Below are positions 6,326 to 32,000 of a stretch of DNA of 32,000 nt, in pieces. The stretch's first letter is position 1. Every line of letters starts with the position of its first letter. The DNA comes from an uncultured Acidobacteriota bacterium (GTDB lineage Bacteria; Acidobacteriota; Terriglobia; Terriglobales; Acidobacteriaceae): assembly GCA_963696025.1 (NCBI GenBank), contig CAVOII010000009.1:170561-202560 (forward strand), read 5' to 3'. The notes under the pieces are model-generated. The model had not been told where the DNA came from, ran no database searches, and saw nothing but the letters and a program-made list of their open reading frames with translations. Position numbers and translations under genes: made by a program.

Positions 6326-6354
6326 TTGACTTGGCTGCTTGCGCAGCCTACCAT
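6326..6354 (+). promoter_or_regulatory. Sigma-70-like promoter candidate for the kinase-TPR gene
   Basis: TTGACT (6326-6331), a 17-nt spacer, then TACCAT (6349-6354), about 30 nt upstream of ATG 6384. Confidence 0.35.
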
Positions 6355-6383
6355 CGGAAAATCTCCTGGGAGCTGTCCGGTTG

Positions 6384-9335: not shown

Positions 9336-9490
9336 TGATGAGACCGTACCCGAGCCCGGCAATATGGTATGCGTGAGGTAGGCCAAAGTAAAACAATGGG
9401 CAATTGTCTTGTTATGTGTGTCGCGCCTTGTCACCTCAGCATTGCGGGTCGTACACTCCGTTTCGCTTCTCGCGGACGCGCTCCGAACGT

Positions 9491-10237
9491 ATGCCGGATG
9501 CACGCAATGTCGGCGCTAATGGGAATTTCCCCGCGACACGCTGGTCGCTCATTCTGGCGGCACGGAGCGGCCAGGTCGAGGAGCGTCAGCGCGCGCTCAA
9601 TACGCTGATTGCCGCATACTGGAAGCCGGTGTACAAGTACATCCGCCTTCGTTGGCGGAAGGACAACGAAGAGGCTCAGGACCTGACGCAGGAGTTTTTC
9701 GCGCGCCTGCTGGAAAACGATTTCCTCGAAAGCTACGATCCGAGCCGGGCGCGACTACGCACATTTCTACGGGTATGCGTCGATCGGCTGGTCGCGAACC
9801 AGGAGAAAGCTGCCCATCGGTTGAAGCGCGGCGGCGAGCTCCAGATTCTTTCCCTTGATTTCGAATCGGCCGAGGGTGAATTGCAGCAAATCGAAATACC
9901 GTCGCCCGAAACGATGGACGACTTCTTCGCGAGAGAGTGGGTGCGCAGTGTTTTTAGCCTTGCACTGGAACGTTTGCGGCAGGACTGTGAGGAGCGGGGC
10001 AAACAGACGCGGTTTCGCTTGCTGGAACTCTACGACATCGAGGAGGGCGGCAAGAAGTTGACCTATGAACAGGTGGGTCGTCAGTTTGGATTGAAGGCGT
10101 CTGACGTCACTAACTATCTGGCCTACGCTCGCCGCGAATTTCGCCGCATCGTGCTGGAGCAACTCCGGGAGATGACCGCCAACGACGATGAATTCCGCCG
10201 CGAGGCGCGCACCCTGTTGGGTATTGATGTTCCGTGA
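9491..10237 (+). CDS. ECF-type RNA polymerase sigma factor, of the type paired with Ser/Thr kinases (ECF43-like)
   Basis: Sigma-2-like RWSLILAA...AQDLTQEFFARLLE...LRTFLRVCVDRLV. Sigma-4 HTH-like LTYEQVGRQFGLKASDVTNYLAYARREFRRIV. Stop TGA 10235-10237 overlaps GTG 10234 of the downstream kinase. Confidence 0.8.
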   Translation: MPDARNVGANGNFPATRWSLILAARSGQVEERQRALNTLIAAYWKPVYKYIRLRWRKDNEEAQDLTQEFFARLLENDFLESYDPSRARLRTFLRVCVDRLVANQEKAAHRLKRGGELQILSLDFESAEGELQQIEIPSPETMDDFFAREWVRSVFSLALERLRQDCEERGKQTRFRLLELYDIEEGGKKLTYEQVGRQFGLKASDVTNYLAYARREFRRIVLEQLREMTANDDEFRREARTLLGIDVP

Positions 10238-11229
10238 AAACCGGCGTCCCCATGAAGTGGCTCTCAGATTCCGCGCTTGACCGCCTGCGTGCCGCCGCCG
10301 ACGCGCCCGATCTCAGCGGCACTCGTTACCTGTTGCAGGATAAGCTTGGCCAGGGCGGTATGGGCGGTGTGTATCGCGTCGAAGACACTATACTCACGCG
10401 GCAAGTGGCGCTCAAGGTGATCGGATTCGCCGATTCCGGCGGTGAACTCGCAGCCCGACTGCTGCGCGAGGCCAAGGTGATCGCACAGCTGGAGCATCCC
10501 GGAATTGTCCCGGTGCACGACGTGGGGACTCTGCCCGACGGCCGCGTGTTCTACACCATGAAGTTGGTGCAGGGCCACCGACTGGATCAGCGCGCCGCGG
10601 AACTGGGAGGAGTGCCGGACCGACTGCGAATTTTCCGGAGAATCTGTGAAGCGGTGTCATTTGCTCATGCTCGCGGCGTGTTGCATCGCGACCTGAAGCC
10701 GCAGAATGTAATGATCGGACCTTTTGGTGAAGTGCTGGTGATGGACTGGGGGCTCTCGAAACTGCTGGGCTCAAAGAATCCGATCGGCGAAGAAAGGCCG
10801 CACCCAGACGCGCCTCGAGTAAAGCATGCGACCGGCACCTCCCATGGCGTGATTCTGGGTACGCCCGGCTATATGGCTCCAGAGCAAGCTCGCGGGGAGG
10901 TCGCCAGGGTCGATCAACGTGCAGACATTTATTCGTTGGCGGCAATATTGAAATTCCTCTTAGCCCATCCTTTCCCTAACCGGGTACCAAAAGCGCTATC
11001 CGCGATCTGCCGTCAGGCGTCAGCAGAAGAACCACAACAGCGGTATGGCTCGGTAGAGGAGCTGGCAACTGATGTGGCACATTACTTGGATGGACTGCCG
11101 GTCAGCGCGTATCCCGAGGGTCCTTTCGCGCCCTTGTGGCGATGGGCGGCCAAGAATAGCGCCTGGCTATTGCTGGTCCTCGCCTATATTGTGATGCGCG
11201 CTTTGTTAATCATGTGGCGAATTCGGTAG
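10234..11229 (+). CDS. Ser/Thr protein kinase with C-terminal membrane anchor
   Basis: GQGGMGGVYRV, VALKV, HRDLKPQNVM, MDWGLS, GTPGYMAPEQ, and the C-terminal helix AWLLLVLAYIVMRALLIMW. Start is GTG 10234 (GTGA overlap) or ATG 10252. Confidence 0.85.
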   Translation: MKTGVPMKWLSDSALDRLRAAADAPDLSGTRYLLQDKLGQGGMGGVYRVEDTILTRQVALKVIGFADSGGELAARLLREAKVIAQLEHPGIVPVHDVGTLPDGRVFYTMKLVQGHRLDQRAAELGGVPDRLRIFRRICEAVSFAHARGVLHRDLKPQNVMIGPFGEVLVMDWGLSKLLGSKNPIGEERPHPDAPRVKHATGTSHGVILGTPGYMAPEQARGEVARVDQRADIYSLAAILKFLLAHPFPNRVPKALSAICRQASAEEPQQRYGSVEELATDVAHYLDGLPVSAYPEGPFAPLWRWAAKNSAWLLLVLAYIVMRALLIMWRIR

Positions 11230-12501: not shown

Positions 12502-13620
12502 TCATTCTGCACCCCAAGTTTCTCTCAATACCCGATAGAAGTTCTTGCCTAAAACTTTTTCGATCACCTCAAATGAGTATCCCAGCTTGCTCAAACCGGT
12601 AGCGATGATTTCCAGGCGATCGGTTCGATCCAAATCTGGCGAGTATGGCGGGCGGTCCTCTTCGGGAGCGGCTACCCCTGACTTTTTCCGGCTGGCGATG
12701 TGCTCCGCGAATGCTTTTCGTTGCTCAGGTGTGTTCGGATAGGTGTCCAGAATGCCGTCACTCCCAATTCCCACGTGGTCGGTCCCACAAATTTTCAGGG
12801 CGTGGTCCAGATGCTGGAGGGCGTGTTCGCGTGTCGGAGAAATTGGGCTGGCCACCAGGTACGGCATAAAGTAGATCCCGGCTACCCCGCCGTGATCCGC
12901 CAGCAACCGCAGTTCGCGGTCTTCCTTGTTGCGGGGATGCGGATGAACTGCATAGCACCCAACGTGAGTAAAGAGCACAGGTTTGCTGGAGGCCTCGATG
13001 GCCTCAGCGCTGGTGCGCTGGCCGCAGTGGCTCAGGTCAACGGCGATGCCCCGGTCATTCATTTTGCTGATAGCTGCGTGTCCCAGCTTGCTCAGTCCAG
13101 CATTGCCGGGCTCCAAGCAGCCATCGCCATAGAGTCCGCGATTGTTGTAAGTCAGCTGAATGATACGAACCCCGAGCCGCCGGAACACCTCGAGGCGATC
13201 CAAATTCGATCCCAGGCACTGGGTTTCCTGGAATCCCAGCATGATGCCGATTTTTTGCTCGCGTTTGGCCTGGTCGAGGTCGGAATGGCGGCGAACCACT
13301 GACCAGTGCGCAGGATCGCTCTCAGCAATCCCGTTGACGAACGCAATATACGAGACGGTGTCTTCGAATTCCGGCAGCGAGACTGTCCAGTTGATCGCAC
13401 TCACTCCCGCTTCAAGCGCCTGTTTTGTGATCTCCGGCTTAATGGGCAGATCGAAGGAGTCCGCTCTGATGGCAGCGCACGCATCGATGACCAACGTCCT
13501 GTGATAAAGATCAGCGATCGCCGGAATAATGCCGGCCTCCTGCGCAAGAATGCGCGCCGGATCCAGTTTTAATAGACAGGCAATTTGCGCGGAGTTTGCC
13601 AGGAAAGCCCGGCGATCCAT
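12502..13620 (-). CDS. Membrane/renal-type dipeptidase (peptidase M19) with Tat-like signal
   Basis: N-terminal MDRRAFLANSAQ. M19-like text: IIQLTYNNRGLYGDGC, VDLSHCGQRT, FTHVG, DHVGIGSDG. Confidence 0.8.
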   Translation of the reverse strand: MDRRAFLANSAQIACLLKLDPARILAQEAGIIPAIADLYHRTLVIDACAAIRADSFDLPIKPEITKQALEAGVSAINWTVSLPEFEDTVSYIAFVNGIAESDPAHWSVVRRHSDLDQAKREQKIGIMLGFQETQCLGSNLDRLEVFRRLGVRIIQLTYNNRGLYGDGCLEPGNAGLSKLGHAAISKMNDRGIAVDLSHCGQRTSAEAIEASSKPVLFTHVGCYAVHPHPRNKEDRELRLLADHGGVAGIYFMPYLVASPISPTREHALQHLDHALKICGTDHVGIGSDGILDTYPNTPEQRKAFAEHIASRKKSGVAAPEEDRPPYSPDLDRTDRLEIIATGLSKLGYSFEVIEKVLGKNFYRVLRETWGAE

Positions 13621-20593: not shown

Positions 20594-21274
20594 TTATGGT
20601 CCTTGCAATATCTGCAGTTTGTCACCCGTCACCAATCGCGCGCGATAAATGGTGTTGATCGCCTCCACCTCCGCCACCGCATCTATGTTCAGGTCGTAGG
20701 CTCCACGCGGCAAGTTCTCTGCAAAAGTGATCTCGAAATCGATGGTATTTTTGCTCAACGTGAAGTGCTGATAGCCAATCGCGGTGGCTCGTCCAATCTC
20801 ATTCACCGCCAGCGCGATTACCGTAAGGTCGAAGTCCTGCCCGGTCTGATTTGATAGCTTGATGGCGCACTCCACTCTTTGCCCCGTGATCCTGGGATAT
20901 CGGCTCCACTGCAGCAACAGCGGCGCCACGATGTCCAACTCCAACGCCTGGGTTCGCTGATGGGGCGGCTTGGCACTATCGGTGGCCGCCACTCCAAAGT
21001 GAAACTGGCCGCCTTCGGTTGGGATACCGCTCAGAATTCCGTCGTCGCTCAAGGTTATGCCGTGAGGCAGCGCACCGTTGCTCACTTCCCACTTGAATGG
21101 CGTGATCCCTCCCCTGGCCTCCAACTGGTAGCGGTACGGCTGCCGCAGAAAACCCTTCGGCAGAGAAGCGGTCTGGATCACAATTTTCTCGCCTTCGGAC
21201 GCGCCGGATTGGCCCAGCGAAGTGCCTGCCAGTGCTAGCGCCACGACAACAGCTGCTGTCATCTTCATGAACAT
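20594..21274 (-). CDS. Secreted protein with a putative Ig-like (He_PIG / cadherin-like) domain
   Basis: Signal peptide MFMKMTAAVVVALALAGTSLG. LPKGFLRQPYRYQLEARGGITPFKWEVSNGALPHGITLSDDGILSGIPTEGGQFHF matches the 'putative Ig domain' pattern. It lies 9 nt downstream of the kinase gene. Confidence 0.65.
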   Translation of the reverse strand: MFMKMTAAVVVALALAGTSLGQSGASEGEKIVIQTASLPKGFLRQPYRYQLEARGGITPFKWEVSNGALPHGITLSDDGILSGIPTEGGQFHFGVAATDSAKPPHQRTQALELDIVAPLLLQWSRYPRITGQRVECAIKLSNQTGQDFDLTVIALAVNEIGRATAIGYQHFTLSKNTIDFEITFAENLPRGAYDLNIDAVAEVEAINTIYRARLVTGDKLQILQGP

Positions 21275-21283
21275 ATACCTTCG

Positions 21284-23947
21284 CTAGGGCTTCAGATTGC
21301 TCAACTGTACGATGTCCGCCTCGCCTTTTCCCACTGCGGCGTAGATGGAGTGTCCATCGGACGACCAGGAAACTCTCCGACCAATAAATGTCGCTTGAGT
21401 CCCAAAATCCGTGATGCGCCGCATCTCGCCACCAGCGGTGGGCTGCGCCCATATATTCGTGGTCGGTCCATCGGTCAACAGGACGGCTAGCCACTTGCCA
21501 TCCGGGGAGAGGATCGGCTGCATAAGCACCGACTTCGACAACCGCGATCCTGAAATTCGCGCCACCTTCTGTGCTGGGCCATTCTCCGGATTGGCTACCA
21601 GTATCTCCATATCCGACAGACCGTTCAGCGCCGGCAAACTCAGGACGAAGAAAAGTCTTCCTTCGGCATCAACCGCCGGCTTCTGTCCTTCTTCGCGAAC
21701 TACCATCGGCGTGCCGCCCTCAGGCGAGATCTTCTCTATACGAAATGCATTCTGGGTGGGAGGCGAAAAATACAGCCATCGACTGTCTGGTGACCAGCAG
21801 GCCCAACCACCGCCGTCCGAAACTTTGTGAGCATTGCTTCCGTCTGGGTTCATCAACCAGAGATCGACGTTCCAGCCTTTGAGGCCGCGCTTCACATAGG
21901 CTATGTACTTCCCGTCCGGGGACCAGACGGGCACCCCGATCGTGACCTGCGGATCGTGTTCGAAGGTGACCTGGCGAGTCTGCTGAGTTTCGAGATTCAG
22001 CACCCACAGATTGCCATGGCCCCCGCTATCGCTCAGATAAACGAGTTCGTGATCCCCGGGGCCAGCGGATGGAGTCTGCACCGCCCCGGTCTGGTGCGTG
22101 ATCTGGGTGCCATGGCGAACATTCTCTGCGGGGCTGCCATCAACCGGGTAACGCCAAACATCAAACTGGATTTGCCTGCGGGTGGCGACCAGGTTACCGC
22201 GCTGATCGAGATCGGGCGAAATGTAAGAGGTCTCCCCGAACGTGAGCTGCCGTAGATTCTTTCCTCCAGATTGGACGGACCAGAGATTCATGGTCCGCAG
22301 ATAGAGGACGGTGTCGCCTCGGGAAGAGCTGTAGACCACCCCTGACCCGTCGGGCAACCAGGCAAAGCCCGCCAGAGGAGTCTGGTCCTGCGTGATTGCT
22401 TGCGGAGCGCCTCCTTCTACCGGCACATAGAAAATGTCATAGTCAAAGGTTCGGCCTCTCTCGAATCCCAACTTTCGGTCGTCCGGAGACCAGCGCAGGT
22501 CGGAATAGATGTACTCAGTCGGGAGCACCGTCAGCCGACGGGAGTTCGAGCCGTCCGCGTCTGCTATATCTAGCTCAAGTTCCCCTTGGTTGGAGTGAAA
22601 ATAGGCAATGTGTTTGCCGTCATGGCTCAGGTCAGCGCCCGTCAGGCTGGTCAGCAGCGGCCGTCCCGTTCCTCCCAACGCGGGAATTTGCCAGATCTTC
22701 CCTTGCCCGTCCGGTTCGCTGGAAGGAGAGAAATAAATCAGCGACGACGAATCCGACGACCAGCGTGGGTATTGGTGGTCGGCATCGTCATGCGTCACCT
22801 GCAGCGGACTGCCTCCAGCCAGCAAACGCACCCAAACCTGCCTTCGTCCTCCCACGTCGGCGGTAAACGCTATCGACTTGCCGTCAGGCGACAATGCCGG
22901 AAATTCTTCCATGCCTACAAAGTCAGTCAACCGCTTTAACTCGATCGGCAGAGAATTATCCGACCGTGACCTGACTGCCCGTGCCGCCAGGAATCCAAGT
23001 CCGGCCGCCGCCAATAACGCAACCAAGACTGGCACCAGCCACCCTCGTCCCTTTTTTGCCGGAAGCGCCAGCGCTGCGCCGCTCCCACTTTCCTCACGGC
23101 TGAGCAACTCCAGATTGAAGGCCAGGTCGCGTGCTGACTGAAATCGCTCCGCCGGGTCCTTCTCTAGACAGCGATGCACGATGTGTCCTAGCGCCGGAGG
23201 AAGATTGCGGCGCGTCCCCGAAAGCTCTGCCGGTTCCTCCTTGAGGATTGCGCTCATGGTATCCGCCGCCGTGGCTCCCTGAAATGCCCGGTTTCCGGAG
23301 AGCATCTCGTAGAGGATCACGCCTAAACCGAAGATATCGGAACGATGGTCGACTACTTGTCCCCGCACCTGCTCTGGCGACATGTAACCCGCCGTCCCCA
23401 ACACCACGCCCAGTTCCGTGACGCTCACCGTCGCCCCTGAATTGCTCAGGCCCGCGGCGTCGGGCCCTACCAGCTTGGCCAGCCCGAAATCCAGAATTTT
23501 GACTACGCCATCGCGGGTCAGAAAGATGTTTTCGGGCTTCAGATCGCGATGCACAATGCCACGTTCGTGGGCCGCCGCCAGCCCCCGTGCTATCTGCAGA
23601 GCGTATTCCACCGCCTTACGCCGCGGAATCTCGCCTTGTTCTAGGCGCTCTCGCAGAGTTTGCCCCTGAAGAAGTTCGGTGACGAGGTAGGCCGCGTTCT
23701 TGTCGGTAGTGCCGAAGCGATACACCGCTAGAATGTTGGGATGATTGAGCGCCGCCGCTGCCCGCGCTTCCTGCTCAAACCGCCGCAGCCGATCGCGGTC
23801 TGAAGCCAATTCTTCCGGCAGCACTTTGACGGCAACTTCGCGGCCCAGGCTTTGGTCGCGTGCGCGATACACCTCTCCCATGCCGCCCGCCCCTAGCGGT
23901 GCAATGATCTCGCAGTCGCCAAGCCTCGTCCCTGCCCTAATAGGCAT
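21284..23947 (-). CDS. Ser/Thr protein kinase with TM helix and TolB-like (PD40/WD40-like) beta-propeller repeats
   Basis: [43 protein letters not shown] helix [20 protein letters not shown]. Repeated SPDGKSIAF / [10 protein letters not shown] / [10 protein letters not shown] motifs. Confidence 0.9.
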
Positions 23948-24157
23948 AGGTCAGGGCATTATAGTGCGCTAAAGCACACCAACTGTACTCTGCGTTGCAC
24001 TTTGCCCTCGCCATCGAAATAACTTCCCTTTCGGGTTAATCAGTCCTGTCTACTGCAAAAGATGATTGGCGGATTGGTCGCGCAGCGTCTAGGATTCCCG
24101 CTGCGATCAGGCCGGTTGCGTGCGTGATTTTTCAAGCAACCCGCCCCTCCCCTAAAA

Positions 24158-24195
24158 ACCCGCTGATCCTCCCGCACGGGATCGGCGGGTTTTTT
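24158..24195 (+). terminator. Strong Rho-independent terminator in a divergent intergenic region
   Basis: ACCCGCTGATCC (24158-24169) pairs with GGATCGGCGGGT (24179-24190): 12 bp including one G-U that is only valid on the plus strand, with a 9-nt loop. The T-run extends through 24195, and an A5 run lies upstream. Confidence 0.7.
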
Positions 24196-24287
24196 GTGGA
24201 CGGTAGCATTGCGCTTCCCCCGCCCCTCGACGTCCCCTTGGCCCGCACGATAAGCTAGATGGTTTTCTGGAGGGGTTATCAGATCGT

Positions 24288-24845
24288 ATGCGTGAGGCGG
24301 TCGCAAAACTCTGGCCGGAGATTCAGTGGATCGAAGACAAGATCCTGCGCCAGCAGGTAACTGAGACTTGGATCAAAGCCCTGGAGCGCAGTCCCCTGAA
24401 GCCCGCCGACCTGAACCATATTCCCTTCACGCTGCTGGTGCCTAACTGTCCCATTACTTTCATGGAGCACAAGCGCTGCGTGGTCCATATCGCACGACAA
24501 AGCGCCGAAGCCATGCAGGAGTTTATGGGACGCGCCCTTCCCATCGATATGGACACTGTCGTCGCAGGCGCGATTCTCGCCGATGTGGGCAAATTGCTTG
24601 AGTATGAGCTTGGCCCCGACGGCAAGAGCCGTCAAAGCGAACGTGGGGAGGCGCTGCGCCATCCTTTTACCGGAGTGGCGCTGGCGCTGGAGTGCGGCGT
24701 GCCCGATGCCGTGTGCCACATCATCGCAGCGCATGCCGCAGAGGGCGATCTCGTGAAGCGCACCACGGAAGCCTACATTGTCCACCACGCCGACTTCATG
24801 GCGTTTCTGCCGTTCAAAAATCCCAAGAACGTGAAAGTGAAATGA
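24288..24845 (+). CDS. HD-domain superfamily protein (atypical metal-binding motif)
   Basis: RBS GGAGG at 24270-24274. HD-domain-like layout: EHKRCVVHIARQSAEAM ... AGAILADVGK ... RHPFTG ... IIAAHAAEG ... HHADF. The position usually reading HD reads AD. Confidence 0.6.
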   Translation: MREAVAKLWPEIQWIEDKILRQQVTETWIKALERSPLKPADLNHIPFTLLVPNCPITFMEHKRCVVHIARQSAEAMQEFMGRALPIDMDTVVAGAILADVGKLLEYELGPDGKSRQSERGEALRHPFTGVALALECGVPDAVCHIIAAHAAEGDLVKRTTEAYIVHHADFMAFLPFKNPKNVKVK

Positions 24846-24854
24846 ACGGAACTC

Positions 24855-24945
24855 AGCCTCAGAGAGGCGGCATAGTTTAGCCCCGGACGTAAGTCCGGGT
24901 TAGGCATGGGAAAAAGGACAGAGTCCCGTAGGGACGGCAGAAGAG
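24855..24945. repeat. REP-like intergenic element with GNRA-capped hairpin
   Basis: CCCGGAC-GTAA-GTCCGGG (24882-24899) and GTCCC-GTA-GGGAC (24923-24935). Confidence 0.55.
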
Positions 24946-24963
24946 TCACATCAGGAGACCAGC

Positions 24964-26412
24964 GTGTCCGCTAAAGAAGGCATCGCTACCAAAGAGACCG
25001 TCACCGCCAGGATGGCGCGCTGGGCGGCCGCGCTCGAATACCGACACCTGTCGCAGGACGCTGTCTATCAAGCCAAACGCTTCCTGCTCGATTCCCTAGG
25101 CTGCGCCTTGGGTGGCTACCAGCAGCACGACGTGAAGATTGCTCTCGAAGTACTCGACGAAATCGCTGGCAAAGGCCCAGCCACTCTGATCGGCACTGGC
25201 AAGCGCATCGATGCAGTATCGGCTTCCCTGGCAAACGCCTTGATGATCCGCTGCATGGATTACAACGACATTTATTGGAAGCAGGACCCGTCGCATCCGT
25301 CGGATATCTTTCCCGCGGCTCTGGCTAGCTGCGAACGTGCGAAGAGCGGCGGGAAAGAACTGATCGTCGGCCTCGTGCTCGGGCACGAATTCGAAATGCG
25401 TTTCTGCGAAGCTGCGTTCCCTGGAATTCGCGAGCGCGGCTGGCATCACGCTACTCTCACCGCGTTCGTTTCACCGATTGTCGCAGGACGCATGCTGCAT
25501 CTTGATTGGGAGCAGATTCAGCACGCCATCGGCATCTCCGCCAGCCGCCACGCCACGCTAGGAGCGGTCACAGCTGGCAAGCTCACAATGATGAAAAATA
25601 CCGTCGACCCCATGGCCACGCAGAGCGGCGTGCTGGCTGCTCTGTTCGCGGAAAAGGGCTACACCGGTCCGGAGCATGTCGTCGACGGCAAAGAAGGGCT
25701 CACGCATTGCTTCGGCCCAGAATGGAAGCTGAATTTCCTGACCGACGGCCTGGGCGAATCGTGGCGCATCACGCAATGCGGCATGAAGGCCTTCCCCACC
25801 GAGGCGCTGACCCATACGCCGATCTCTGCCGTGCTGGATATCGTGAAGTCGAGCGACCTGAAGCCCGATCACGTGGCCAGGGTCCAGATTCGCTCGCTGG
25901 CGCGTGCCGCCGACATCCTTTCCGATCCCAGCAAGTATGATCCGCGCACCAAAGAAACTGCAGATCATTCGCTGCCATACGTGATTGCCGCCGCAATCGC
26001 GGATCGTCAGGTCACGCCGGTGCAATTTGAAATGAAGAAGATCACGGATCCGACGATTCGCGCGCAGTTGAAGAAAGTGGAAGTAGTGGCAGACCCCGAG
26101 ATCGAGAAAGTTTTCCCCGCACTGCAGCGGGTGATTGTGAACCTCACGACCACGGATGGTCGGACATTCACCAAGCAATTGGATTATCCCAAAGGCGATC
26201 CAAGGAATCCATTGAGCGACGCCGAGGTCGAAGAGAAGTTCGCGGCGCTGGCAGAAGGCATATTGTCCACGGGTGCGCAGAAGAAGCTGAAAGATGCGAT
26301 CTGGAACTTGGATAAGCTGGCCTCCGTAACTAAGCTGATGGCACTGATGAAGGCTGATGTCAAAACGAAGAACACAGCGCATAAGGCCACAAAGAGCAAC
26401 AAACCGGCCTAA
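24964..26412 (+). CDS. MmgE/PrpD family protein (2-methylcitrate dehydratase-like)
   Basis: GTG start after AGGAGA (24953-24958). Family text: FLLDSLGCALGG, LMIRCMDYNDIYW, DPSHPSD, ETADHSLPYVIAAAI. Confidence 0.85.
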   Translation: MSAKEGIATKETVTARMARWAAALEYRHLSQDAVYQAKRFLLDSLGCALGGYQQHDVKIALEVLDEIAGKGPATLIGTGKRIDAVSASLANALMIRCMDYNDIYWKQDPSHPSDIFPAALASCERAKSGGKELIVGLVLGHEFEMRFCEAAFPGIRERGWHHATLTAFVSPIVAGRMLHLDWEQIQHAIGISASRHATLGAVTAGKLTMMKNTVDPMATQSGVLAALFAEKGYTGPEHVVDGKEGLTHCFGPEWKLNFLTDGLGESWRITQCGMKAFPTEALTHTPISAVLDIVKSSDLKPDHVARVQIRSLARAADILSDPSKYDPRTKETADHSLPYVIAAAIADRQVTPVQFEMKKITDPTIRAQLKKVEVVADPEIEKVFPALQRVIVNLTTTDGRTFTKQLDYPKGDPRNPLSDAEVEEKFAALAEGILSTGAQKKLKDAIWNLDKLASVTKLMALMKADVKTKNTAHKATKSNKPA

Positions 26413-26424
26413 TTGATGTCGTTA

Positions 26425-26550
26425 AAGCGCCGTCGAAGGGCACGGCTTAAGTCCCTCTTAAGTATGTCAAGTACCGTGGAAGGGCACGGCTTAAGCCGTG
26501 CCAAGAGTTCTCAATTAGGATCGTTAGCCGAGCGAAGCGAGGACGCAGAT
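26425..26550. repeat. REP-like elements: 17-nt direct repeat, 20-nt perfect palindrome, and a GAGCGAAGCGAGGA-type copy
   Basis: GAAGGGCACGGCTTAAG at 26435-26451 and 26479-26495. Palindrome GGCACGGCTTAAGCCGTGCC at 26483-26502. GCCGAGCGAAGCGAGGAC at 26527-26544. A related hairpin AGGGCACGA/TCGTGCCCT lies at 3562-3586. Confidence 0.7.
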
Positions 26551-26641
26551 CGAGTTCGACGGCGAATGCGGCCGTATTATAAAGAACCGCGCAAAGTAGC
26601 GACCCATAAATGTTGCCGACCCTAGCTCGGCCGGATTAATC

Positions 26642-28585
26642 ATGCCCCAAACCATCGTTGAAAAAATCGCACAGACTCATCTCGCTGAAGGACCGAAACG
26701 CCCACTGCGCACGGGGGACTTCGTCTCGATCCGCCCGCGTCATGTGATGACTCACGACAACACCTCGGCCGTGATGAGCAAGTTCAAAGGTATCGGCGCC
26801 AAAAAGATTCATGATCCAAAGCAGCTGGTCTTCGCACTCGATCACGACATCCAGAACAAGGACGAAGCCAATCAGGAGAAATATCGCGCTATTGAGGCGT
26901 TTGCCAAGGAACACGGAATCGACTTCTATCCTGCGGGCTCAGGCATCGGCCATCAGATCATGGTCGAGCGCGGCTACGTCGTTCCGGGATCCTTCGTGGT
27001 CGCGTCCGATTCGCATTCCAATATGTACGGTGCCTTGGGTGCAATCGGCACCCCAATTGTCCGCACAGATGCTGCCGCCGCCTGGGCCACCGGCGAATTC
27101 TGGTGGCAGATTCCGCGCTCGATTGAAGTGGTGCTGGAAGGCGAGTTGCCGGCAGGCGCAACTGGAAAAGATGTCATCATCACGCTGTGCGGACTCTACA
27201 ACCACGACGAAGTGCTGAATGCCGCAGTCGAATTCAGCGGTCTCGGCGTCACCAGCCTTTCCATGGACGCACGTCTCACGATTTCCAACATGACCACCGA
27301 GTGGGGACCGCTCGTAGGCTGGTTTCCGGTGGATAAGATCACAATCGATTACCTGAAAGGCGTTCATCAGCGTCTCAAGGCTACAGGAGTCGAGCGCTTT
27401 TCAGAAAACGATATCGAGAACTGGACCAGGAATCCACCCCGACCGGATGCCAGTGCCGAATACGCGGCCCGAATCGTGCTCGACCTCAGCCAAGTCACGC
27501 CGTATGTATCCGGACCCGATACAGTGCAGGTGATGGCGTCACTGGCCGAAATGCAAAGGAAAAAAGTCGCGATACAAAAAGCCTATCTGCTTTCCTGTGT
27601 CAACTCGCGACTGGAAGACCTCGAAGCTGCCGCAAGCGTTGTGAAGGGTAAGAAAGTCGCCGCGGGCGTTAAATTGTATCTCGGTGCCGCCAGCAAATGG
27701 GTACAGGAGGAAGCCGAGAAGCGCGGTACTTGGAAGACGCTACTCGATGCCGGCGCGCGTCCGCTGCCCGCAGGTTGCGGGCCCTGCATCGGCCTGGGCG
27801 TCGGACTGCTCGAGCCCGGCGAAGTCGGAATCTCTGCCACCAATCGCAATTTCAAAGGACGCATGGGATCGCGCGACGCCCAATGTTATCTCGCCAGCCC
27901 GGAAGTCGTCGCCGCGTCTGCCATCGCCGGCTACATTCGCGGGCCACACGAGATGGCAGATCGCACGCCCGCTCGCAACTACGCCGAATTCGCCAGCGGA
28001 GCAGTCGCGGAAACAGTTGATATCCTGCTCGGTTTTCCCCAACGGATGCGCGGGCGGCTGGTGCTGCTGCCGCAGGACAACGTCAACACCGATGCCATCT
28101 ACGGAAAGGACTACACCTACCGCGATGATGTGACGCCGGAAATGATGGCAAAAGTCATCATGGAGAATTACGATCCGCAGTTTTCCGCACGCGTCCAATC
28201 GGGCGATGTCCTTGTCAGCGGCTTCAACTTCGGCACCGGATCGAGCCGGGAGCAGGCGGTTACCGCCCTGAAGGCCAAGGGCATACCGCTGGTGATCGCG
28301 GCCAGCTTTTCCCAGACCTATCTGCGCAACGCGTTTAACAATGGATTTCTTTGCCTGGAAGTCCCCGATCTAGTGAAGCGGTTGCGCGAGCAATTCGCGA
28401 AGGGAATTGCCGCAAAAGAAAGAACTATTATTCCCGGAGATGAAATTGACATCGATTTCACCTCAGGTGTGGTCCACTGGCGTGGCGAGAAGTTTGCGTT
28501 TCCACCGTTGGGCAGTGTGCCGCAATCACTGGTGATCGCCGAAGGCGTAGAGAATCTGGTGGCCAAGCGGCTGGGGCTGAGTTGA
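26642..28585 (+). CDS. Aconitase-superfamily hydro-lyase with fused large and small (swivel) domains (homoaconitase/isopropylmalate-isomerase-like)
   Basis: SDSHSNMYGALG, ISNMTTEWG, SCVNSRLEDL, AGCGPCIGLG, ATNRNFKGRMGS (Fe-S ligands and active site). C-terminal LeuD-like VNTDAIYGK and GFNFGTGSSREQA. Confidence 0.85.
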   Translation: MPQTIVEKIAQTHLAEGPKRPLRTGDFVSIRPRHVMTHDNTSAVMSKFKGIGAKKIHDPKQLVFALDHDIQNKDEANQEKYRAIEAFAKEHGIDFYPAGSGIGHQIMVERGYVVPGSFVVASDSHSNMYGALGAIGTPIVRTDAAAAWATGEFWWQIPRSIEVVLEGELPAGATGKDVIITLCGLYNHDEVLNAAVEFSGLGVTSLSMDARLTISNMTTEWGPLVGWFPVDKITIDYLKGVHQRLKATGVERFSENDIENWTRNPPRPDASAEYAARIVLDLSQVTPYVSGPDTVQVMASLAEMQRKKVAIQKAYLLSCVNSRLEDLEAAASVVKGKKVAAGVKLYLGAASKWVQEEAEKRGTWKTLLDAGARPLPAGCGPCIGLGVGLLEPGEVGISATNRNFKGRMGSRDAQCYLASPEVVAASAIAGYIRGPHEMADRTPARNYAEFASGAVAETVDILLGFPQRMRGRLVLLPQDNVNTDAIYGKDYTYRDDVTPEMMAKVIMENYDPQFSARVQSGDVLVSGFNFGTGSSREQAVTALKAKGIPLVIAASFSQTYLRNAFNNGFLCLEVPDLVKRLREQFAKGIAAKERTIIPGDEIDIDFTSGVVHWRGEKFAFPPLGSVPQSLVIAEGVENLVAKRLGLS

Positions 28586-28642
28586 GGCCTCTGCGTTCTC
28601 GGCGTCCTCTGCGGTTCAAGATTTTGATTTATAGGAGAGTGA

Positions 28643-29824
28643 ATGGCGAAACATACCGTAGTGTCGATGCCTGGCGATGGAATCGGCCATCAAGTTCTAC
28701 CCGAAGCCGTTCGAGTGTTGAACGCAGTCGGATTTGACGCGGAATACCTTCACGCCGACATTGGCTGGGAATGCTGGAGCAACGAAGGCAACGCCCTTCC
28801 GCAACGCACCATCGACTTGCTCGCCAAGCATAAGTTGGGACTCTTCGGCGCCATCACCTCAAAGCCAAACAAAGAAGCGCAGGCCGAACTCAAACCGGAG
28901 TTGCGGGGCAAGGTTTACTACAGCCCGATCGTCACCATGCGGCAGAAGTTCAATCTGGATATCTGCATGCGCCCTTGCGTCGGCTTTATCGGCAATCCGT
29001 TGAATTACATTCGCAAGCGCGTGGATGGCGGCTTCGACGAGCCCCGCATTGACACCACGGTTTTTCGTCAGAATACCGAGGGCATGTATGCCGGAGTAGA
29101 GTGGACGAATCCTCCGGAGAACGTGCGCGCGGCTCTGAATACGCACCCGCGGTTCAAAGCTTTCGCCAACGTAGCTCCCGCAGATCTAGCCGTGAGCGTG
29201 CGAATCATTACACGGCCAGCCGCACGCCGCATCGTCACCGCCGCGTTCGAATATGCCAACAAGCGCGGCTTCAAAGGCGTAACTATCTGTGAAAAACCTA
29301 ATGTGGTGCGCGAGACTTCCGGGATGATGGAAGAGACGGCCAAGGAAGTGGCGAAGAATTATCCCGGAATTGCCTTGTGGTCTACCAACATTGACGCGCA
29401 GTTGATGTGGCTGAACAAGAATCCGGAAGACTACAACGTGATCGTTGCGTCGAACTTGTTCGGCGACATTTTGTCAGACGCATTTGCGGGATTGGTCGGC
29501 GGCTTGGGCTTCGCCGCCTCTGGCAATATCGGAGACGAAGTCGCGGTGTTCGAGCCGACACACGGCTCGGCCCCGAAATATGCAGAATTGAATCCGCCGA
29601 TTGTGAATCCGATTGCGATGATTCTGACAGCCGCCATGATGCTCGATCACATCGGAGAGGGCCCGAAGGCTGATCGGATCCGCAAAGCCATCGCCGATGT
29701 GGTCAAAGAGGGAAAAGTGCGCACCTACGACATGATGCGTATTTCGGGTGGCGCGAAGTCGATCAGCCAGGGGGCAGCCTCGACGATTCAGATGACGGAC
29801 ACGATATTGGCGAAGCTGAAGTAG
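28643..29824 (+). CDS. Isocitrate/isopropylmalate dehydrogenase-family beta-decarboxylating dehydrogenase
   Basis: RBS AGGAGA upstream. MPGDGIGHQV, FRQNTEGMYAG, SNLFGDILSD, FEPTHGSAPKYA. Confidence 0.85.
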   Translation: MAKHTVVSMPGDGIGHQVLPEAVRVLNAVGFDAEYLHADIGWECWSNEGNALPQRTIDLLAKHKLGLFGAITSKPNKEAQAELKPELRGKVYYSPIVTMRQKFNLDICMRPCVGFIGNPLNYIRKRVDGGFDEPRIDTTVFRQNTEGMYAGVEWTNPPENVRAALNTHPRFKAFANVAPADLAVSVRIITRPAARRIVTAAFEYANKRGFKGVTICEKPNVVRETSGMMEETAKEVAKNYPGIALWSTNIDAQLMWLNKNPEDYNVIVASNLFGDILSDAFAGLVGGLGFAASGNIGDEVAVFEPTHGSAPKYAELNPPIVNPIAMILTAAMMLDHIGEGPKADRIRKAIADVVKEGKVRTYDMMRISGGAKSISQGAASTIQMTDTILAKLK

Positions 29825-29871
29825 TGGCTGATAAGAATGCTTGTCTTGCTGAAGATGAGAAGGTTCGTGCA

Positions 29872-31101
29872 ATGGCTCCTTCCCACGAAATTACGATAGC
29901 GCATTCTGCCGAAGCGGGACACTGGGGCAAGGACGTGCGCTCGGATGTGCACGTCACCATCGAACCACGTGATCGTGGCGGCCTGGAGATCACGATGGAA
30001 TCCCGGGTCAAGCCCTATTACGGCGATTCGATCCTCGCGCAGACTCGACAGGTTTTGGAGTCGCTGGGCGTCAAGCACGCGCGGGTTGCAGTGCACGACG
30101 AGGGTGCGTTGCCTTTCGTAATTTCGGCGCGAATCGAGACGGCGGTCAAGCGTGCCGGTCTCGGGAGCGGCCAAAAGGCGCTACCGGATGCCGTCCCTGT
30201 GCCTGCACCCTCACCGCGCGACCGGCTGCGACGCTCACGTTTGTATCTGCCAGGTTCGGAGCCGAAATATTTCATCAATGCCGGTCTTCACGGCCCAGAT
30301 GCAATCATTCTCGATCTTGAGGATTCGGTTCATCTCGGTGAAAAAGACGCGGCCCGCATCCTGGCGCGGAACGCGTTGCGTGCGGTTGATTTTGGCGCTT
30401 GCGAGCGCATGGTCCGCATCAACCAGTTGCCCATGGCACTGGAAGACCTTGCCGAAATCATTCCCGAGGCGCCTGACTTGGTGCTGATCCCAAAGACTGA
30501 ACACTCGCTGCAGGTGACGGAAGTGGAACGAATGATCAACGAACTCAGGGCTCGCCACAGCGTCAATCGCACTATCTGGCTGATGCCGATTCTGGAATCG
30601 GCGCTGGGAATTGAAAATGCTTTTGCTATCGCGACTGCCAGTCCCAACGTGGCCGCGCTGACCATTGGGCTTGAAGACTACACCGATGACCTGGGCGTGG
30701 CCAAGACGCTGGAAGGAAAAGAGTCTCTCTACGCGCGTACGCGCCTGGTCAATGCCGCTACGGCCGCGGGTATCCAGGCGATCGATTCAGTCTTCGGCGA
30801 TGTGAGCGACTTGGATGGCCTCCGGCGCTGGGCAGAAAACTCGCGGGCGTTGGGATTCGAAGGCATGGGCTGCATTCATCCGTCGCAAATTCCTGTAGTT
30901 CATGCGGCATTCACACCGTCGCAGGCGGAGATCGATCGGGCATTGAAAATTGTCGCTGCATTCGAGGAAGCCCAGCAACGTGGCCTGGGTGTGGTTAGTT
31001 TGGGCTCGAAGATGATTGATCCGCCGGTTGTGGAGCGCGCCCAAAAGCTGGTGACACGGGCGCGACAAATGGGTCTCTCTGTCATGCTGAGCGGAGAGTG
31101 A
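29872..31101 (+). CDS. Fusion of citrate-lyase acyl carrier protein (gamma, CitD-like) and citrate (citryl-ACP) lyase beta subunit (CitE-like)
   Basis: N-terminal ~100 aa: AEAGHWGKDVRSDVHVTIEP ... VAVHDEGALPFVISARIETAVKRA (CitD-like, with Ser at the prosthetic-group position). The rest: RRSRLYLPGSEPKY, AIILDLEDSV, LIPKTE, ILESALGIENA, LTIGLEDYTDDLG, GFEGMGCIHPSQI, GVVSLGSKMIDPPV (CitE). An alternative GTG start at 29824 overlaps the upstream stop. Confidence 0.8.
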   Translation: MAPSHEITIAHSAEAGHWGKDVRSDVHVTIEPRDRGGLEITMESRVKPYYGDSILAQTRQVLESLGVKHARVAVHDEGALPFVISARIETAVKRAGLGSGQKALPDAVPVPAPSPRDRLRRSRLYLPGSEPKYFINAGLHGPDAIILDLEDSVHLGEKDAARILARNALRAVDFGACERMVRINQLPMALEDLAEIIPEAPDLVLIPKTEHSLQVTEVERMINELRARHSVNRTIWLMPILESALGIENAFAIATASPNVAALTIGLEDYTDDLGVAKTLEGKESLYARTRLVNAATAAGIQAIDSVFGDVSDLDGLRRWAENSRALGFEGMGCIHPSQIPVVHAAFTPSQAEIDRALKIVAAFEEAQQRGLGVVSLGSKMIDPPVVERAQKLVTRARQMGLSVMLSGE

Positions 31102-31205
31102 GTCTCGCACTGCGAAACTCACTCGCAGTCGAAGCATCCCTACTTGGCAACGTACGAAGGCAGACGTAGGGATCCTTCGCCTGTCTGTCGTTTCTCGCGA
31201 AACGA
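31081..31205. repeat. REP-like element overlapping the 3' end of the citD-citE fusion gene and filling the gap to citF
   Basis: GTCATGCTGAGCG (31081-31093), GCAGTCGAAGCATCC (31125-31139). Hairpin ATCCCTAC/GTAGGGAT (31136-31143 with 31166-31173) and CGTTTC-TCGC-GAAACG (31188-31203). Confidence 0.6.
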
Positions 31206-31224
31206 TCAACGAAAAGACAACAAT

Positions 31225-32000
31225 ATGAGCGATCGCATTGAGATGGTACAGAACGCCGCCAAGCGCATGGTTCCCGCCATGGTTAACGGCAGACCTCAGA
31301 TTCCTTACCTGGGCGTTGCCAAGTACCAGGCTCGCGGACGCAAAGCTGCGCCGCCTGTGCGTTCGAGCAAAGATTATCCAGAGAATGGCGACCAGCGCGT
31401 CGCCGACCTCGACACTGCTCTGCGCAAGTGTGGCCTGCGCGACGGCATGGTGATCTCCAGTCATCATCATTTGCGCGATGGTGACCGCGTGGCCTTGCTC
31501 GCGCTCGAAGCCGCGGCAAAAATCGGCGTGAAGGACCTGATGTGGTTCCCCAGCGCCTCCTTCCCCTCCCAGAAGGCAGCGATTGATCTGATGCAGTCGG
31601 GAGTAATTCATCACATCGAAGGCTCGATGAATGGTCCGCTCGGCGATTACTGCACTCAGGGCAAAATGCGTGGCATGGGAGTTCTTCGGTCGCACGGCGG
31701 GCGCTGGCAGGCCATCCAGGACGGCGAAGTTCACATTGATATCGCGGTAATAGCCGCTCCCACGGCCGACGCGTTTGGCAATGCCGATGGGTCGCATGGC
31801 AAGTCTGCGTGCGGATCGCTCGGCTTTGCGCTGGCAGACTCCATCTATGCCGACTACGTCATCGTGGTCACCGACAACCTGGTTCCATTCCCTTGCATTC
31901 CCTGGCAGATCCAGGGCAACAACGTGGACTACGTTGTGGAAGTCGAATCGATTGGTGATCCGGCAAAGATCGTCTCTGGGACCACGCAGATTACGCGTTC
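31225..32000 (+). CDS. citF: Citrate lyase alpha subunit (citrate CoA/ACP-transferase, CitF-like), 5' part; runs off the window end
   Basis: This ORF has no stop inside the window, so it is absent from the supplied track. My translation reads MSDRIEMVQNAAKRMVPAMVNGRPQIPYLG...DGMVISSHHHLRDGDRVAL...IHHIEGSMNGPLG...LRSHGGRWQAIQDGEVHIDIAVIAAPTADAFGNADG...SACGSLGFA, colinear with CitF. Confidence 0.8.
   Translation, partial: MSDRIEMVQNAAKRMVPAMVNGRPQIPYLGVAKYQARGRKAAPPVRSSKDYPENGDQRVADLDTALRKCGLRDGMVISSHHHLRDGDRVALLALEAAAKIGVKDLMWFPSASFPSQKAAIDLMQSGVIHHIEGSMNGPLGDYCTQGKMRGMGVLRSHGGRWQAIQDGEVHIDIAVIAAPTADAFGNADGSHGKSACGSLGFALADSIYADYVIVVTDNLVPFPCIPWQIQGNNVDYVVEVESIGDPAKIVSGTTQITR

Follow-up and report, generated by a model that had tools for sequence, protein, structure and literature searches.

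Six co-directional genes at the end of a 32,000-nt stretch of a genome contig from an uncultured Acidobacteriaceae bacterium (class Terriglobia, phylum Acidobacteriota; CAVOII010000009.1, positions 170,561 to 202,560; hereafter the window, in whose positions coordinates are given unless another locus is named) combine a citrate-lyase-type enzyme with a Lys4-type homoaconitase, a dehydrogenase resembling homoisocitrate dehydrogenase (HICDH), an MmgE/PrpD-family protein, and an HD-domain protein. All six lie on the + strand, and open reading frame (ORF), Pfam, and NCBIfam evidence recovered every one of the families named for them in a first-pass annotation of this DNA. We propose that they encode a reversible module of the C7 homocitrate series that would be run in Terriglobia as a cleavage of 2-oxoadipate, a reading to which we give a probability of roughly 0.4. 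Within it, the evidence from sequence makes homocitrate-series compounds the probable substrates, and, if that series is granted, we give cleavage slightly better than even odds as the direction.

In the proposed scheme, the NADP-type dehydrogenase would join 2-oxoadipate, CO2, and NADPH into homoisocitrate, which the Lys4-type homoaconitase would convert to cis-homoaconitate. The MmgE/PrpD-family protein would then interconvert cis-homoaconitate and homocitrate, a step beyond the reach of Lys4-type enzymes, and the CitF-like transferase together with the CitE-like lyase domain would split homocitrate into 2-oxoglutarate and acetate by way of a homocitryl thioester. The whole would read 2-oxoadipate + CO2 + NADPH <-> homoisocitrate <-> cis-homoaconitate <-> homocitrate <-> 2-oxoglutarate + acetate. 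The thioester carrier would most likely be free coenzyme A (CoA), cycling in catalytic amounts between acetyl-CoA and homocitryl-CoA, rather than a covalently bound phosphoribosyl-dephospho-CoA, because the prosthetic-group serine is missing from the CitD-like domain. Run from 2-oxoadipate to 2-oxoglutarate and acetate, such a module would be the upper alpha-aminoadipate pathway in reverse and would serve to break down lysine, aminoadipate, or 2-oxoadipate derived from tryptophan. We infer from the sequence features described below which substrates are used, what the PrpD-like protein does, that CoA takes part, and which way the module runs.

The isomerase (26642-28585), a 647-aa fusion of large and small subunits, classifies as a Lys4-type homoaconitase. 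With the NCBIfam equivalog model for homoaconitase (TIGR00139), it reaches 777.7 bits (cutoff 529.9), and it falls below the cutoff in every NCBIfam equivalog model for aconitase and LeuC; the leucine-pathway models reach 200 against 560 (leuC) and 91 against 246 (leud). Alignment with Saccharomyces cerevisiae Lys4p (P0426, so named by NCBI) gives 53% identity over 608 aa; the SCxNSR and CGPC motifs align, and the Fe-S cysteines are kept. The substrate-recognition loop TDAIYGKDYTYRDDV (residues 483-497, nt 28088-28132) is near-invariant across 69 Terriglobia orthologs and is of the same type as that of yeast Lys4p (YGKDYTYRDDV in the window, YPGKYTYQDDV in yeast). The methanogen loops differ: Methanocaldococcus jannaschii homoaconitase has PGPYLRTT and its isopropylmalate/citramalate isomerase has PARYLVY, so that a polar loop (with Arg here and Gln in Lys4) stands against the hydrophobic YLVY of the latter. 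Within the family, this loop determines substrate preference (PMC7308503). Moreover, the fungal and Thermus homoaconitases interconvert homoaconitate and homoisocitrate only, homocitrate needing another enzyme, a split that the authors of that work themselves liken to PrpD plus aconitase (PMC3556520).

The Iso_dh-family beta-decarboxylating dehydrogenase (28643-29824; 393 aa) is HICDH-like and bears an NADP-type cofactor signature. Its top NCBIfam matches are AksF2 (272 bits, cutoff 540) and AksF (269 bits), both homoisocitrate dehydrogenases and both below their cutoffs, and its best match in the PDB is the Thermus HICDH (203 bits); the equivalog models for isocitrate dehydrogenase (IDH) all stay below cutoff as well (e.g., 245 against 510), as does leuB (161 against 353). 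Neither the aconitase-like nor the IDH-like gene thus belongs to the ordinary leuCD/leuB or acn/icd groups, both being below all NCBIfam cutoffs for those, which supports the first-pass annotation. When set against the E. coli IDH sequence, with a numbering that reproduces the well-known residues, the protein has a complete set of catalytic residues and retains Ser113, and it has Ile in place of Asn115, as do 66/66 orthologs and the dehydrogenase of locus L081. In IDH, Asn115 contacts the gamma-carboxylate of isocitrate. The NADP-type residues K344, Y345, V351, Y391, and R395 are present, and the cofactor motif is GSAPKYAE, as against GSAPDIAG in the NAD-type Thermus HICDH; the Lys-Tyr pair would fit an NADPH-driven reductive carboxylation. 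The substrate-helix motif YYSPIVTMR matches YSSPIVALR of the Schizosaccharomyces pombe HICDH (PDB 3ty3), and this SPIV-type helix is unlike that of the Thermus HICDH (FFGAIRYLR) or IDH (IRSLNVALR). Miyazaki et al. reportedly found in 2003 that the R85V change in the Thermus HICDH, which creates Ile-Val at this point, makes the enzyme drop isocitrate and keep its activity on homoisocitrate. Taken together, the Lys4 orthology, the recognition loop, the SPIV motif, and the loss of Asn115 argue for homocitrate over citrate; of the substrates that had been listed side by side for this locus, homocitrate is favored and the citrate/isocitrate option disfavored.

The lyase is encoded by the last two genes. 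The fusion of a CitD-like and a CitE domain (29872-31101; the ORF is also open from a GTG at 29824) matches the Pfam families ACP (acyl carrier protein), HpcH_HpaI (172 bits), and C-C_Bond_Lyase, with an ACP-like domain at about 29905-30156 and a CitE-type lyase domain at about 30223-31068. An overlap of this gene with the dehydrogenase stop codon had been noted, and it holds for the GTG at 29824, which shares one base with the TAG at 29822-29824, but not for the likely start, the ATG at 29872. The orthologs, 403-405 aa long, begin at the position of that ATG, and a Shine-Dalgarno-like GAGAAGG lies 9 nt upstream of it; hence, the dehydrogenase-citDE gap is probably 47 nt. The CitF-type acyl-transferase gene, starting with the ATG at 31225, is cut by the window end (32000), leaving an N-terminal stretch of 258 aa. 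For the region past 32000 we therefore used locus L001, a full-length comparator with proteins 88-96% identical to those of the window. The Pfam CitF scores are 189 bits for the partial protein and 423 bits for its 520-aa L001 ortholog. Both subunits fall short of the citrate-lyase equivalog cutoffs: citE (TIGR01588) gives 269 bits for the window and 263 for L001 against 443, and citF (TIGR01584) gives 472.5 for the full-length L001 protein against 501.45. The CitE part also matches the model of the citramalyl-CoA lyase RipC with 164 bits.

The CitD-like domain was compared with E. coli CitD from NC_000913.3, where citC-D-E-F-X-G-T stand adjacent. In a gap-free alignment with identical Gly10-Asp16 spacing, Arg39 (codon 29938-29940) takes the position of Ser14, the established attachment site for 2'-(5''-phosphoribosyl)-3'-dephospho-CoA in the CitD of E. 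coli and Klebsiella. The homologous Ser25 of MdcC is the prosthetic-group site of that protein (PMC5534430). Among 63 representatives of the fused CitD-CitE family, one for each cluster at 50% identity, the Ser14 position holds Arg in 32 and Lys in 25 (together 57/63, about 90%), while 3 have Ser. The residue that follows varies among S, G, N, A, Q, and C, and Asp16 is the same in all; the domain as a whole has no conserved serine. A tblastn search with E. coli CitC, CitX, CitG, and CitT gave no match at E<=1e-3 in the window and 93 further loci (1.76 Mb), whereas CitE matched in 94/94 records; the citC, citX, and citG genes, whose absence upstream had been remarked on before, are thus missing downstream in the relatives as well. 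A CitD-like domain without the serine would explain these absences better than would accessory genes lying beyond the window. These observations speak against the ACP dependence originally ascribed to the lyase, which is probably ACP independent. The simplest reading is that the fused family does without phosphoribosyl-dephospho-CoA and would use a free thioester carrier. One serine-bearing fusion (P0182, motif ESSD) sits on a contig of 2.8 kb that offers no gene context.

The MmgE/PrpD-family protein (24964-26412; 482 aa; Pfam MmgE_PrpD_N and MmgE_PrpD_C) is divergent. Calling it PrpD, as was first done, is right as to family and wrong as to PrpD proper: it scores 91 against 950, 89.5 against 575, and 64.7 against 458 bits with the NCBIfam PrpD models, and, among solved structures, IDS-epimerase (8e-39) and Bacillus subtilis IRG1 (2e-35) are the closest, true PrpD following at about 1e-13. 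The gap at homocitrate left by Lys4-type enzymes and the precedent of PrpD plus aconitase lead us to postulate, by analogy, that it is a homocitrate/cis-homoaconitate hydratase; alternatively, it may be a decarboxylase or an epimerase. No citrate-synthase- or isocitrate-lyase-family gene occurs among the conserved neighbors, so the earlier statement that neither PrpC nor PrpB is present holds.

The first gene of the operon encodes the HD/HDIG-superfamily protein (24288-24845; 185 aa), which matches TIGR00277 (HDIG; 31.1 against a cutoff of 27.6) and no Pfam family. An AlphaFold2 (AF2) model made with homologs (pLDDT 88.7) has the HD fold, its best PDB match by Foldseek being the HD domain of YhaM (TM 0.65); the other solved neighbors, PgpH and SAMHD1, are generic, and no specific function emerged from the PDB neighbors of the model. 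Nor did a PADLOC scan of the HD and PrpD-like proteins give a match. The protein is 78-96% conserved among Terriglobia orthologs, in 69/69 of which the HD dyad (residues 98-99, 24579-24584) reads Ala-Asp, within ADVGK; H61, D99, H125, H149, and D169 are conserved. An ortholog from Candidatus Bipolaricaulota, 44% identical over the full length and encoded directly after CitF, retains HDVGK. The Terriglobia protein may have altered metal binding or a noncatalytic role. We propose that it is an accessory of the serine-less lyase type; any more specific role, such as a phosphohydrolase directed at CoA or a nucleotide or a regulatory partner for the lyase, is a guess.

A scan of genome contigs, one genome per species, with the CitD-CitE fusion as the query found 390 relatives, and the loci of the best 80 were analyzed. 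Every one of these 80 comes from a metagenome-assembled genome of the Terriglobia (Acidobacteriota). All six genes keep the same order on one strand in 56/80 loci and lie, rearranged, within 21 kb in 9 more, and contig ends cut most of the others. Clear loss of members is limited to L004 and L035, which keep CitDE-CitF alone, and L030, which keeps dehydrogenase-CitDE-CitF; the HD-PrpD pair is inverted a few kilobases upstream in L025, L028, L043, L050, and L078. The median identity of the six proteins to those of the window is 78-91%, that of the adjoining kinase only 44%. The arrangement is thus conserved far beyond chance, which removes the reservation that the genes might merely be juxtaposed in this genome, and it is among the best-conserved blocks of the examined region. 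When all ORFs of the 80 loci were clustered, nothing else traveled with the block, whether a transporter, a regulator, or a cit accessory gene, and the genes past CitF in L001 are unrelated and on the opposite strand. Database annotation of the operon is generic (e.g., "citrate lyase ACP" and "aldolase/citrate lyase family protein").

A promoter-like motif, TCGACG-N18-TAAGCT (24227-24256, + strand), lies about 30 nt ahead of the HD start codon and is followed by a GGAGG-like ribosome-binding site. When the upstream regions of 63 loci were aligned, conservation in the columns of the motif reached at least 90%, and the motif occurs once in the window, with 0.03 matches expected by chance. A terminator scan found no intrinsic terminator in the spacers between the six genes. 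Given this conserved upstream motif and terminator-free spacers, the block behaves as one operon, a single transcription unit starting at the HD gene. A search for regulatory RNAs yielded no lysine riboswitch or other element that would reveal an effector, the sole match being an Acido-Lenti-1 motif on the opposite strand.

Beyond the Terriglobia, the fused CitD-CitE and CitF pair is widespread rather than unique to this locus, with pairs of 36-57% identity in many uncultured lineages. In L081, a 65%-identical dehydrogenase stands immediately upstream of CitDE-CitF; in L082, the pair lies between pyruvate kinase and ATP-type phosphoenolpyruvate (PEP) carboxykinase; in L087, acetate kinase follows immediately downstream; and in L086, the pair is alone. 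Several lineages of Candidatus Bipolaricaulota encode ornithine carbamoyltransferase-CitDE-CitF-HD-HacA-like-HacB-like with overlapping start and stop codons. The small subunit of the isomerase there carries FPGKYTYQPL, a Lys4-type loop, and the CitF homolog passes the citF cutoff (565 against 501). With its HD ortholog and Lys4-type loop, this operon gives a second phylum in which the lyase, the HD protein, and a homoaconitase-type isomerase are linked. The product of a gene behind the Bipolaricaulota operon (345 aa) matches no family and is not a dehydrogenase. In one lineage of that phylum (L083), a 108-aa DUF6506 protein (13289-13615) is encoded between the HD and isomerase large-subunit genes. 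Two anaerobic protists, Mastigella eilhardi (P0173, 943 aa) and Kipferlia bialata (P0231, 927 aa), encode long proteins, one of them named "citrate lyase, alpha subunit," in which the C-terminal approximately 390 residues correspond to the entire CitD-CitE fusion; these proteins resemble triple fusions of the form CitF-CitD-CitE.

As to direction, the cleavage proposed in the first-pass annotation is plausible. The slot of the synthase in an ordinary elongation set is indeed filled by a citrate-lyase-type enzyme, there being no gene of the homocitrate- or isopropylmalate-synthase type in the conserved block; neither homocitrate synthase nor genes leading from aminoadipate to lysine were found in the block or the window. 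The equilibrium constant of citrate lyase, about 0.3-0.9 M, lies toward cleavage, so that the lyase step would be reversible, with cleavage favored at millimolar concentrations. Related fused lyases stand beside PEP carboxykinase or acetate kinase, which are potential users of the products. In Candidatus Solibacter (Acidobacteria, Solibacterales), asd-lysC is under a lysine riboswitch (PMC5584792), which implies that lysine is made by the diaminopimelate route there. The presence of a lyase and of an NADP-type dehydrogenase, together with the lack of lysine genes nearby, the signs from Candidatus Solibacter, and the PEP carboxykinase and acetate kinase neighbors, tilts the odds a little toward cleavage.

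Several points weigh against the proposal. The substrate assignments come from homology and motifs only. The dehydrogenase lies below every curated cutoff, and its cofactor pocket and local sequence, with Ser113 retained, also resemble IDH. No proven dehydratase is as close to the PrpD-like protein as a decarboxylase (IRG1) and an epimerase are. Comparison of lineages uncovered no sequence signature for homocitrate specificity in the lyase subunits, the two isomerase-linked lineages being 43-49% identical to each other in the lyase and 46-52% identical to the PEP carboxykinase-linked one, whose lyase probably cleaves citrate. The absence of citC, citX, and citG covers approximately 10 kb around the loci rather than whole genomes. 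By rough estimate, the whole module would be near equilibrium and, at low CO2 in aerobic cells, would lean toward oxidative decarboxylation. With neither a regulator nor a transporter adjacent, very strong conservation, and a sigma-70-like promoter, the operon has more the character of a housekeeping or biosynthetic unit than of an inducible catabolic one. Finally, in the Thermus lysine cluster, homocitrate synthase stands beside hacA-hacB, the slot that the lyase holds in Bipolaricaulota, and this position favors the synthetic direction in that phylum.

The last points lead to the alternative that survives best, although we consider it unlikely: that the same homocitrate series is run synthetically, with the lyase as a thioester-conserving substitute for homocitrate synthase. 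The CitE-like domain would condense acetyl-CoA and 2-oxoglutarate to homocitryl-CoA, from which the CitF-like subunit would hand the CoA to acetate without hydrolysis, and the product would be 2-oxoadipate or alpha-aminoadipate, for lysine or something else. A block without a gene of the homocitrate-synthase type would then be accounted for, as would the strong conservation, the constitutive-looking promoter, and the want of both regulator and transporter; the Bipolaricaulota operon, with the ornithine carbamoyltransferase gene ahead, has the look of an operon for amino-acid biosynthesis, fungi and Thermus use Lys4 and the HICDHs in biosynthesis, and acetate + 2-oxoglutarate + NAD(P)+ -> 2-oxoadipate + CO2 + NAD(P)H is estimated to be feasible at low CO2. 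However, the first step would have a K of about 1-3 per M, from the established citrate-lyase equilibrium, keeping homocitrate at micromolar levels or lower. Furthermore, the Thermus HICDH is NAD-type (GSAPDIAG) and unlike the NADP-type pocket found here, the neighborhood lacks aminotransferase and LysW/X/Y/Z genes, and Candidatus Solibacter is apparently on the diaminopimelate route.

That the substrates instead belong to the citrate series, with 2-oxoglutarate passing through isocitrate and, by the PrpD-like and aconitase-like pair, citrate to oxaloacetate and acetate, is quite improbable. Such a route would suit the citE/citF-like lyase subunits, including a Bipolaricaulota CitF above the citF cutoff (565 against 501); oxaloacetate as a product would also fit the related fused lyase flanked by pyruvate kinase and PEP carboxykinase. 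The dehydrogenase retains Ser113 and NADP-binding residues and aligns best locally to IDHs, and NCBIfam describes the E. coli-type PrpD model as a bifunctional 2-methylcitrate dehydratase/aconitate hydratase. Nonetheless, the isomerase is a Lys4 ortholog with a Lys4 recognition loop, and Lys4 is inactive outside homoaconitate/homoisocitrate (PMC3556520); Asn115 has given way to Ile throughout the 66 orthologs; and the aconitase and IDH equivalog models are all far under cutoff. A further option, to which we allot a still smaller chance, is another substituted-malate series or an unrecognized tricarboxylate of the soil, in which the PrpD-like protein would perhaps be a decarboxylase or an epimerase; examples are citramalate/3-methylmalate giving pyruvate and acetate, longer homologs of the coenzyme B type, or a plant or fungal tricarboxylate. 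The closeness of the PrpD-like protein to IDS-epimerase and the cis-aconitate decarboxylases points this way, as do the hydrophobic Ile-Val in place of the Asn-Val of IDH, the top matches to the broad-range methanogen AksF enzymes, the RipC match of CitE, and the general knowledge that citramalate lyase is built like citrate lyase. Against it stand the polar Lys4-type loop, where the citramalate/isopropylmalate isomerase has the hydrophobic YLVY, and the SPIV motif, which is that of the homoisocitrate-specific fungal-type enzyme.

It is very improbable that the six genes share inherited synteny and no pathway: the sub-blocks are separable (CitDE-CitF in L004 and L035; dehydrogenase-CitDE-CitF in L030 and L081; five loci with HD-PrpD inverted) and unrelated genes occasionally intervene, but 56/80 loci keep the gene order, with short spacers and one conserved promoter-like motif, and the lyase, HD protein, and homoaconitase-type isomerase recur in another phylum with overlapping start and stop codons. 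Leucine biosynthesis and ordinary tricarboxylic acid (TCA) cycle enzymes are ruled out by the NCBIfam cutoffs and motifs, and the methylcitrate cycle is ruled out by PrpD scores far below cutoff and a locus without prpC or prpB.

The C7 homocitrate-series module proposed here shares parts with several known systems. With citrate lyase (CitDEF of Klebsiella pneumoniae; citCDEFXGT of E. coli), it has in common a CitF-family transferase, a CitE-family lyase, and a CitD-like domain and, probably, acyl exchange followed by retro-Claisen cleavage of the thioester of a 2-substituted malate. Unlike citrate lyase, CitD and CitE are fused, Ser14 is replaced by Arg, and the citE and citF scores are below the equivalog cutoffs; and, whereas all genes of the E. 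coli cit locus are adjacent, no citC, citX, citG, or citrate carrier gene lies within 10 kb in 94 loci. The partners are homoaconitase, HICDH-like, PrpD-family, and HD proteins, and oxaloacetate decarboxylase, the partner of citrate lyase, is not among them. The upper alpha-aminoadipate pathway of fungi and Thermus likewise has a Lys4 ortholog, the SPIV motif, and a separate enzyme for the homocitrate/homoaconitate step, but uses homocitrate synthase where a lyase-type enzyme is found here, and its downstream lysine genes are not nearby; the extra hydratase, which there is an aconitase (Aco2), would be an MmgE/PrpD-family protein here, and the dehydrogenase has NADP-type rather than NAD-type residues. 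The 2-methylcitrate cycle (PrpC, PrpD, AcnB or AcnD-PrpF, PrpB) shows the same split between an MmgE/PrpD dehydratase and an aconitase-family hydratase; it does not use a beta-decarboxylating dehydrogenase, present here, and its PrpC and PrpB are absent here.

Among lyases, the CoA-dependent CitE-type enzymes (Hydrogenobacter citryl-CoA lyase, RipC/Ccl, and malyl-CoA lyase) need no ACP and take a free CoA thioester as substrate, as suggested here, but have neither a CitD-like domain nor CitF, their thioester coming from a synthetase, a family III transferase, or another transferase. A further precedent is the "ATP-independent citrate lyase" of Ignavibacterium album, described in 2012 as CitF plus a CitE-CitD fusion (IALB_1146/IALB_1147) of unknown role, with accessory genes unmentioned (PMC3362086). 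That report is a genome annotation only and suggests a use in the reverse TCA cycle; it notes neither the missing serine nor links to homoaconitase, HICDH-like, PrpD-like, or HD proteins. A literal and incomplete literature search found no description of a "homocitrate lyase," of a citrate lyase with PrpD and homoaconitase, or of these genes in Terriglobia or Bipolaricaulota, and in this limited search the lyase-for-synthase variant, which the first-pass annotation did not recognize as described, had no counterpart either. The combination of parts, the lyase in place of a synthase, and the serine-less CitD-like domain with an HD partner appear to be new. Although all six parts come from known families, there is a substantial chance that their combination marks a new pathway.

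Several elements in and around the operon were recorded in passing. The Acido-Lenti-1 motif (Rfam RF01687) lies in the HD/PrpD-like spacer at 24855-24900 on the - strand (42.2 bits, gathering score 37). L010 has a second copy in the same relative position (5057-5102, - strand; 50.1 bits), and six other scanned loci have none, so the element is sporadic at this spacer. Upstream of the promoter-like motif, in the divergent intergenic region, a terminator-like hairpin (24136-24212, + strand; CCGCTGATCC...GGATCGGCGG then TTTTTT), with a counterpart in L001, overlaps a weak match to the alphaproteobacterial small RNA ar14 (26.6 bits, gathering score 58.8) and could mark a small upstream transcript. 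The PrpD-like/homoaconitase spacer contains a 27-nt direct repeat in two 89%-identical copies (26425-26451 and 26469-26495), the second being part of a perfect palindrome, GGCACGGCTTAAGCCGTGCC, with no T-run behind it; this may be a REP-like or RNA-stabilizing element. In L047, L067, L070, and L076, one or two unrelated ORFs are inserted between the dehydrogenase and CitDE genes, and L075 has insertions in two places. They encode TSP3-repeat, UPF0150-domain, beta-lactamase-fold, and hypothetical proteins unrelated to the operon, which suggests mobile insertions.

The rest of the window consists of unrelated genes. Its signaling genes (6339-9236, 9404-10237, 10234-11229, and 21284-23947) form a dense neighborhood with no evident link to the operon and include three Ser/Thr protein kinases: a short one, one bearing TPR repeats, and one bearing PD40/TolB-like repeats. 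A sigma-70 region-2 protein immediately precedes one of these kinases. The kinase with PD40/TolB-like repeats (21284-23947) lies upstream of the operon on the other strand. The sole other conserved neighbor, a He_PIG (putative Ig-domain) protein (20594-21274, - strand), was seen in 54 loci, mostly in divergent orientation to the HD gene, from which the kinase gene separates it in the window.

Terriglobia are among the most abundant bacteria of acidic soil and peat, and much of their core metabolism is read from automatic annotation. If the cleavage reading is right, the operon would provide a third route, coupled to redox and CO2, for the disposal of 2-oxoadipate from lysine, besides 2-oxoadipate dehydrogenase and HglS, in which exchanging the synthase for a lyase would render the upper alpha-aminoadipate pathway reversible, and a new pathway for C6/C7 dicarboxylates and lysine carbon; alternatively, it would be an ATP- and thioester-sparing synthesis of 2-oxoadipate. 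One branch of the citrate lyases would be redefined as independent of the prosthetic group, which would change how "citrate lyase" is called in metagenomes, for example, in claims of a reverse TCA cycle. This serine-less class would span Acidobacteriota, Bipolaricaulota, and many uncultured lineages, would be further fused in anaerobic protists, and would have no need of CitC, CitX, or CitG. The 53%-identical bacterial proteins with their specificity motifs would be candidate prokaryotic kin of fungal Lys4 and Lys12. That all three hold jointly, namely, a new 2-oxoadipate route, a serine-less lyase class with HD partners in some members, and prokaryotic kin of Lys4 and Lys12, we advance tentatively, at somewhat less than even odds.

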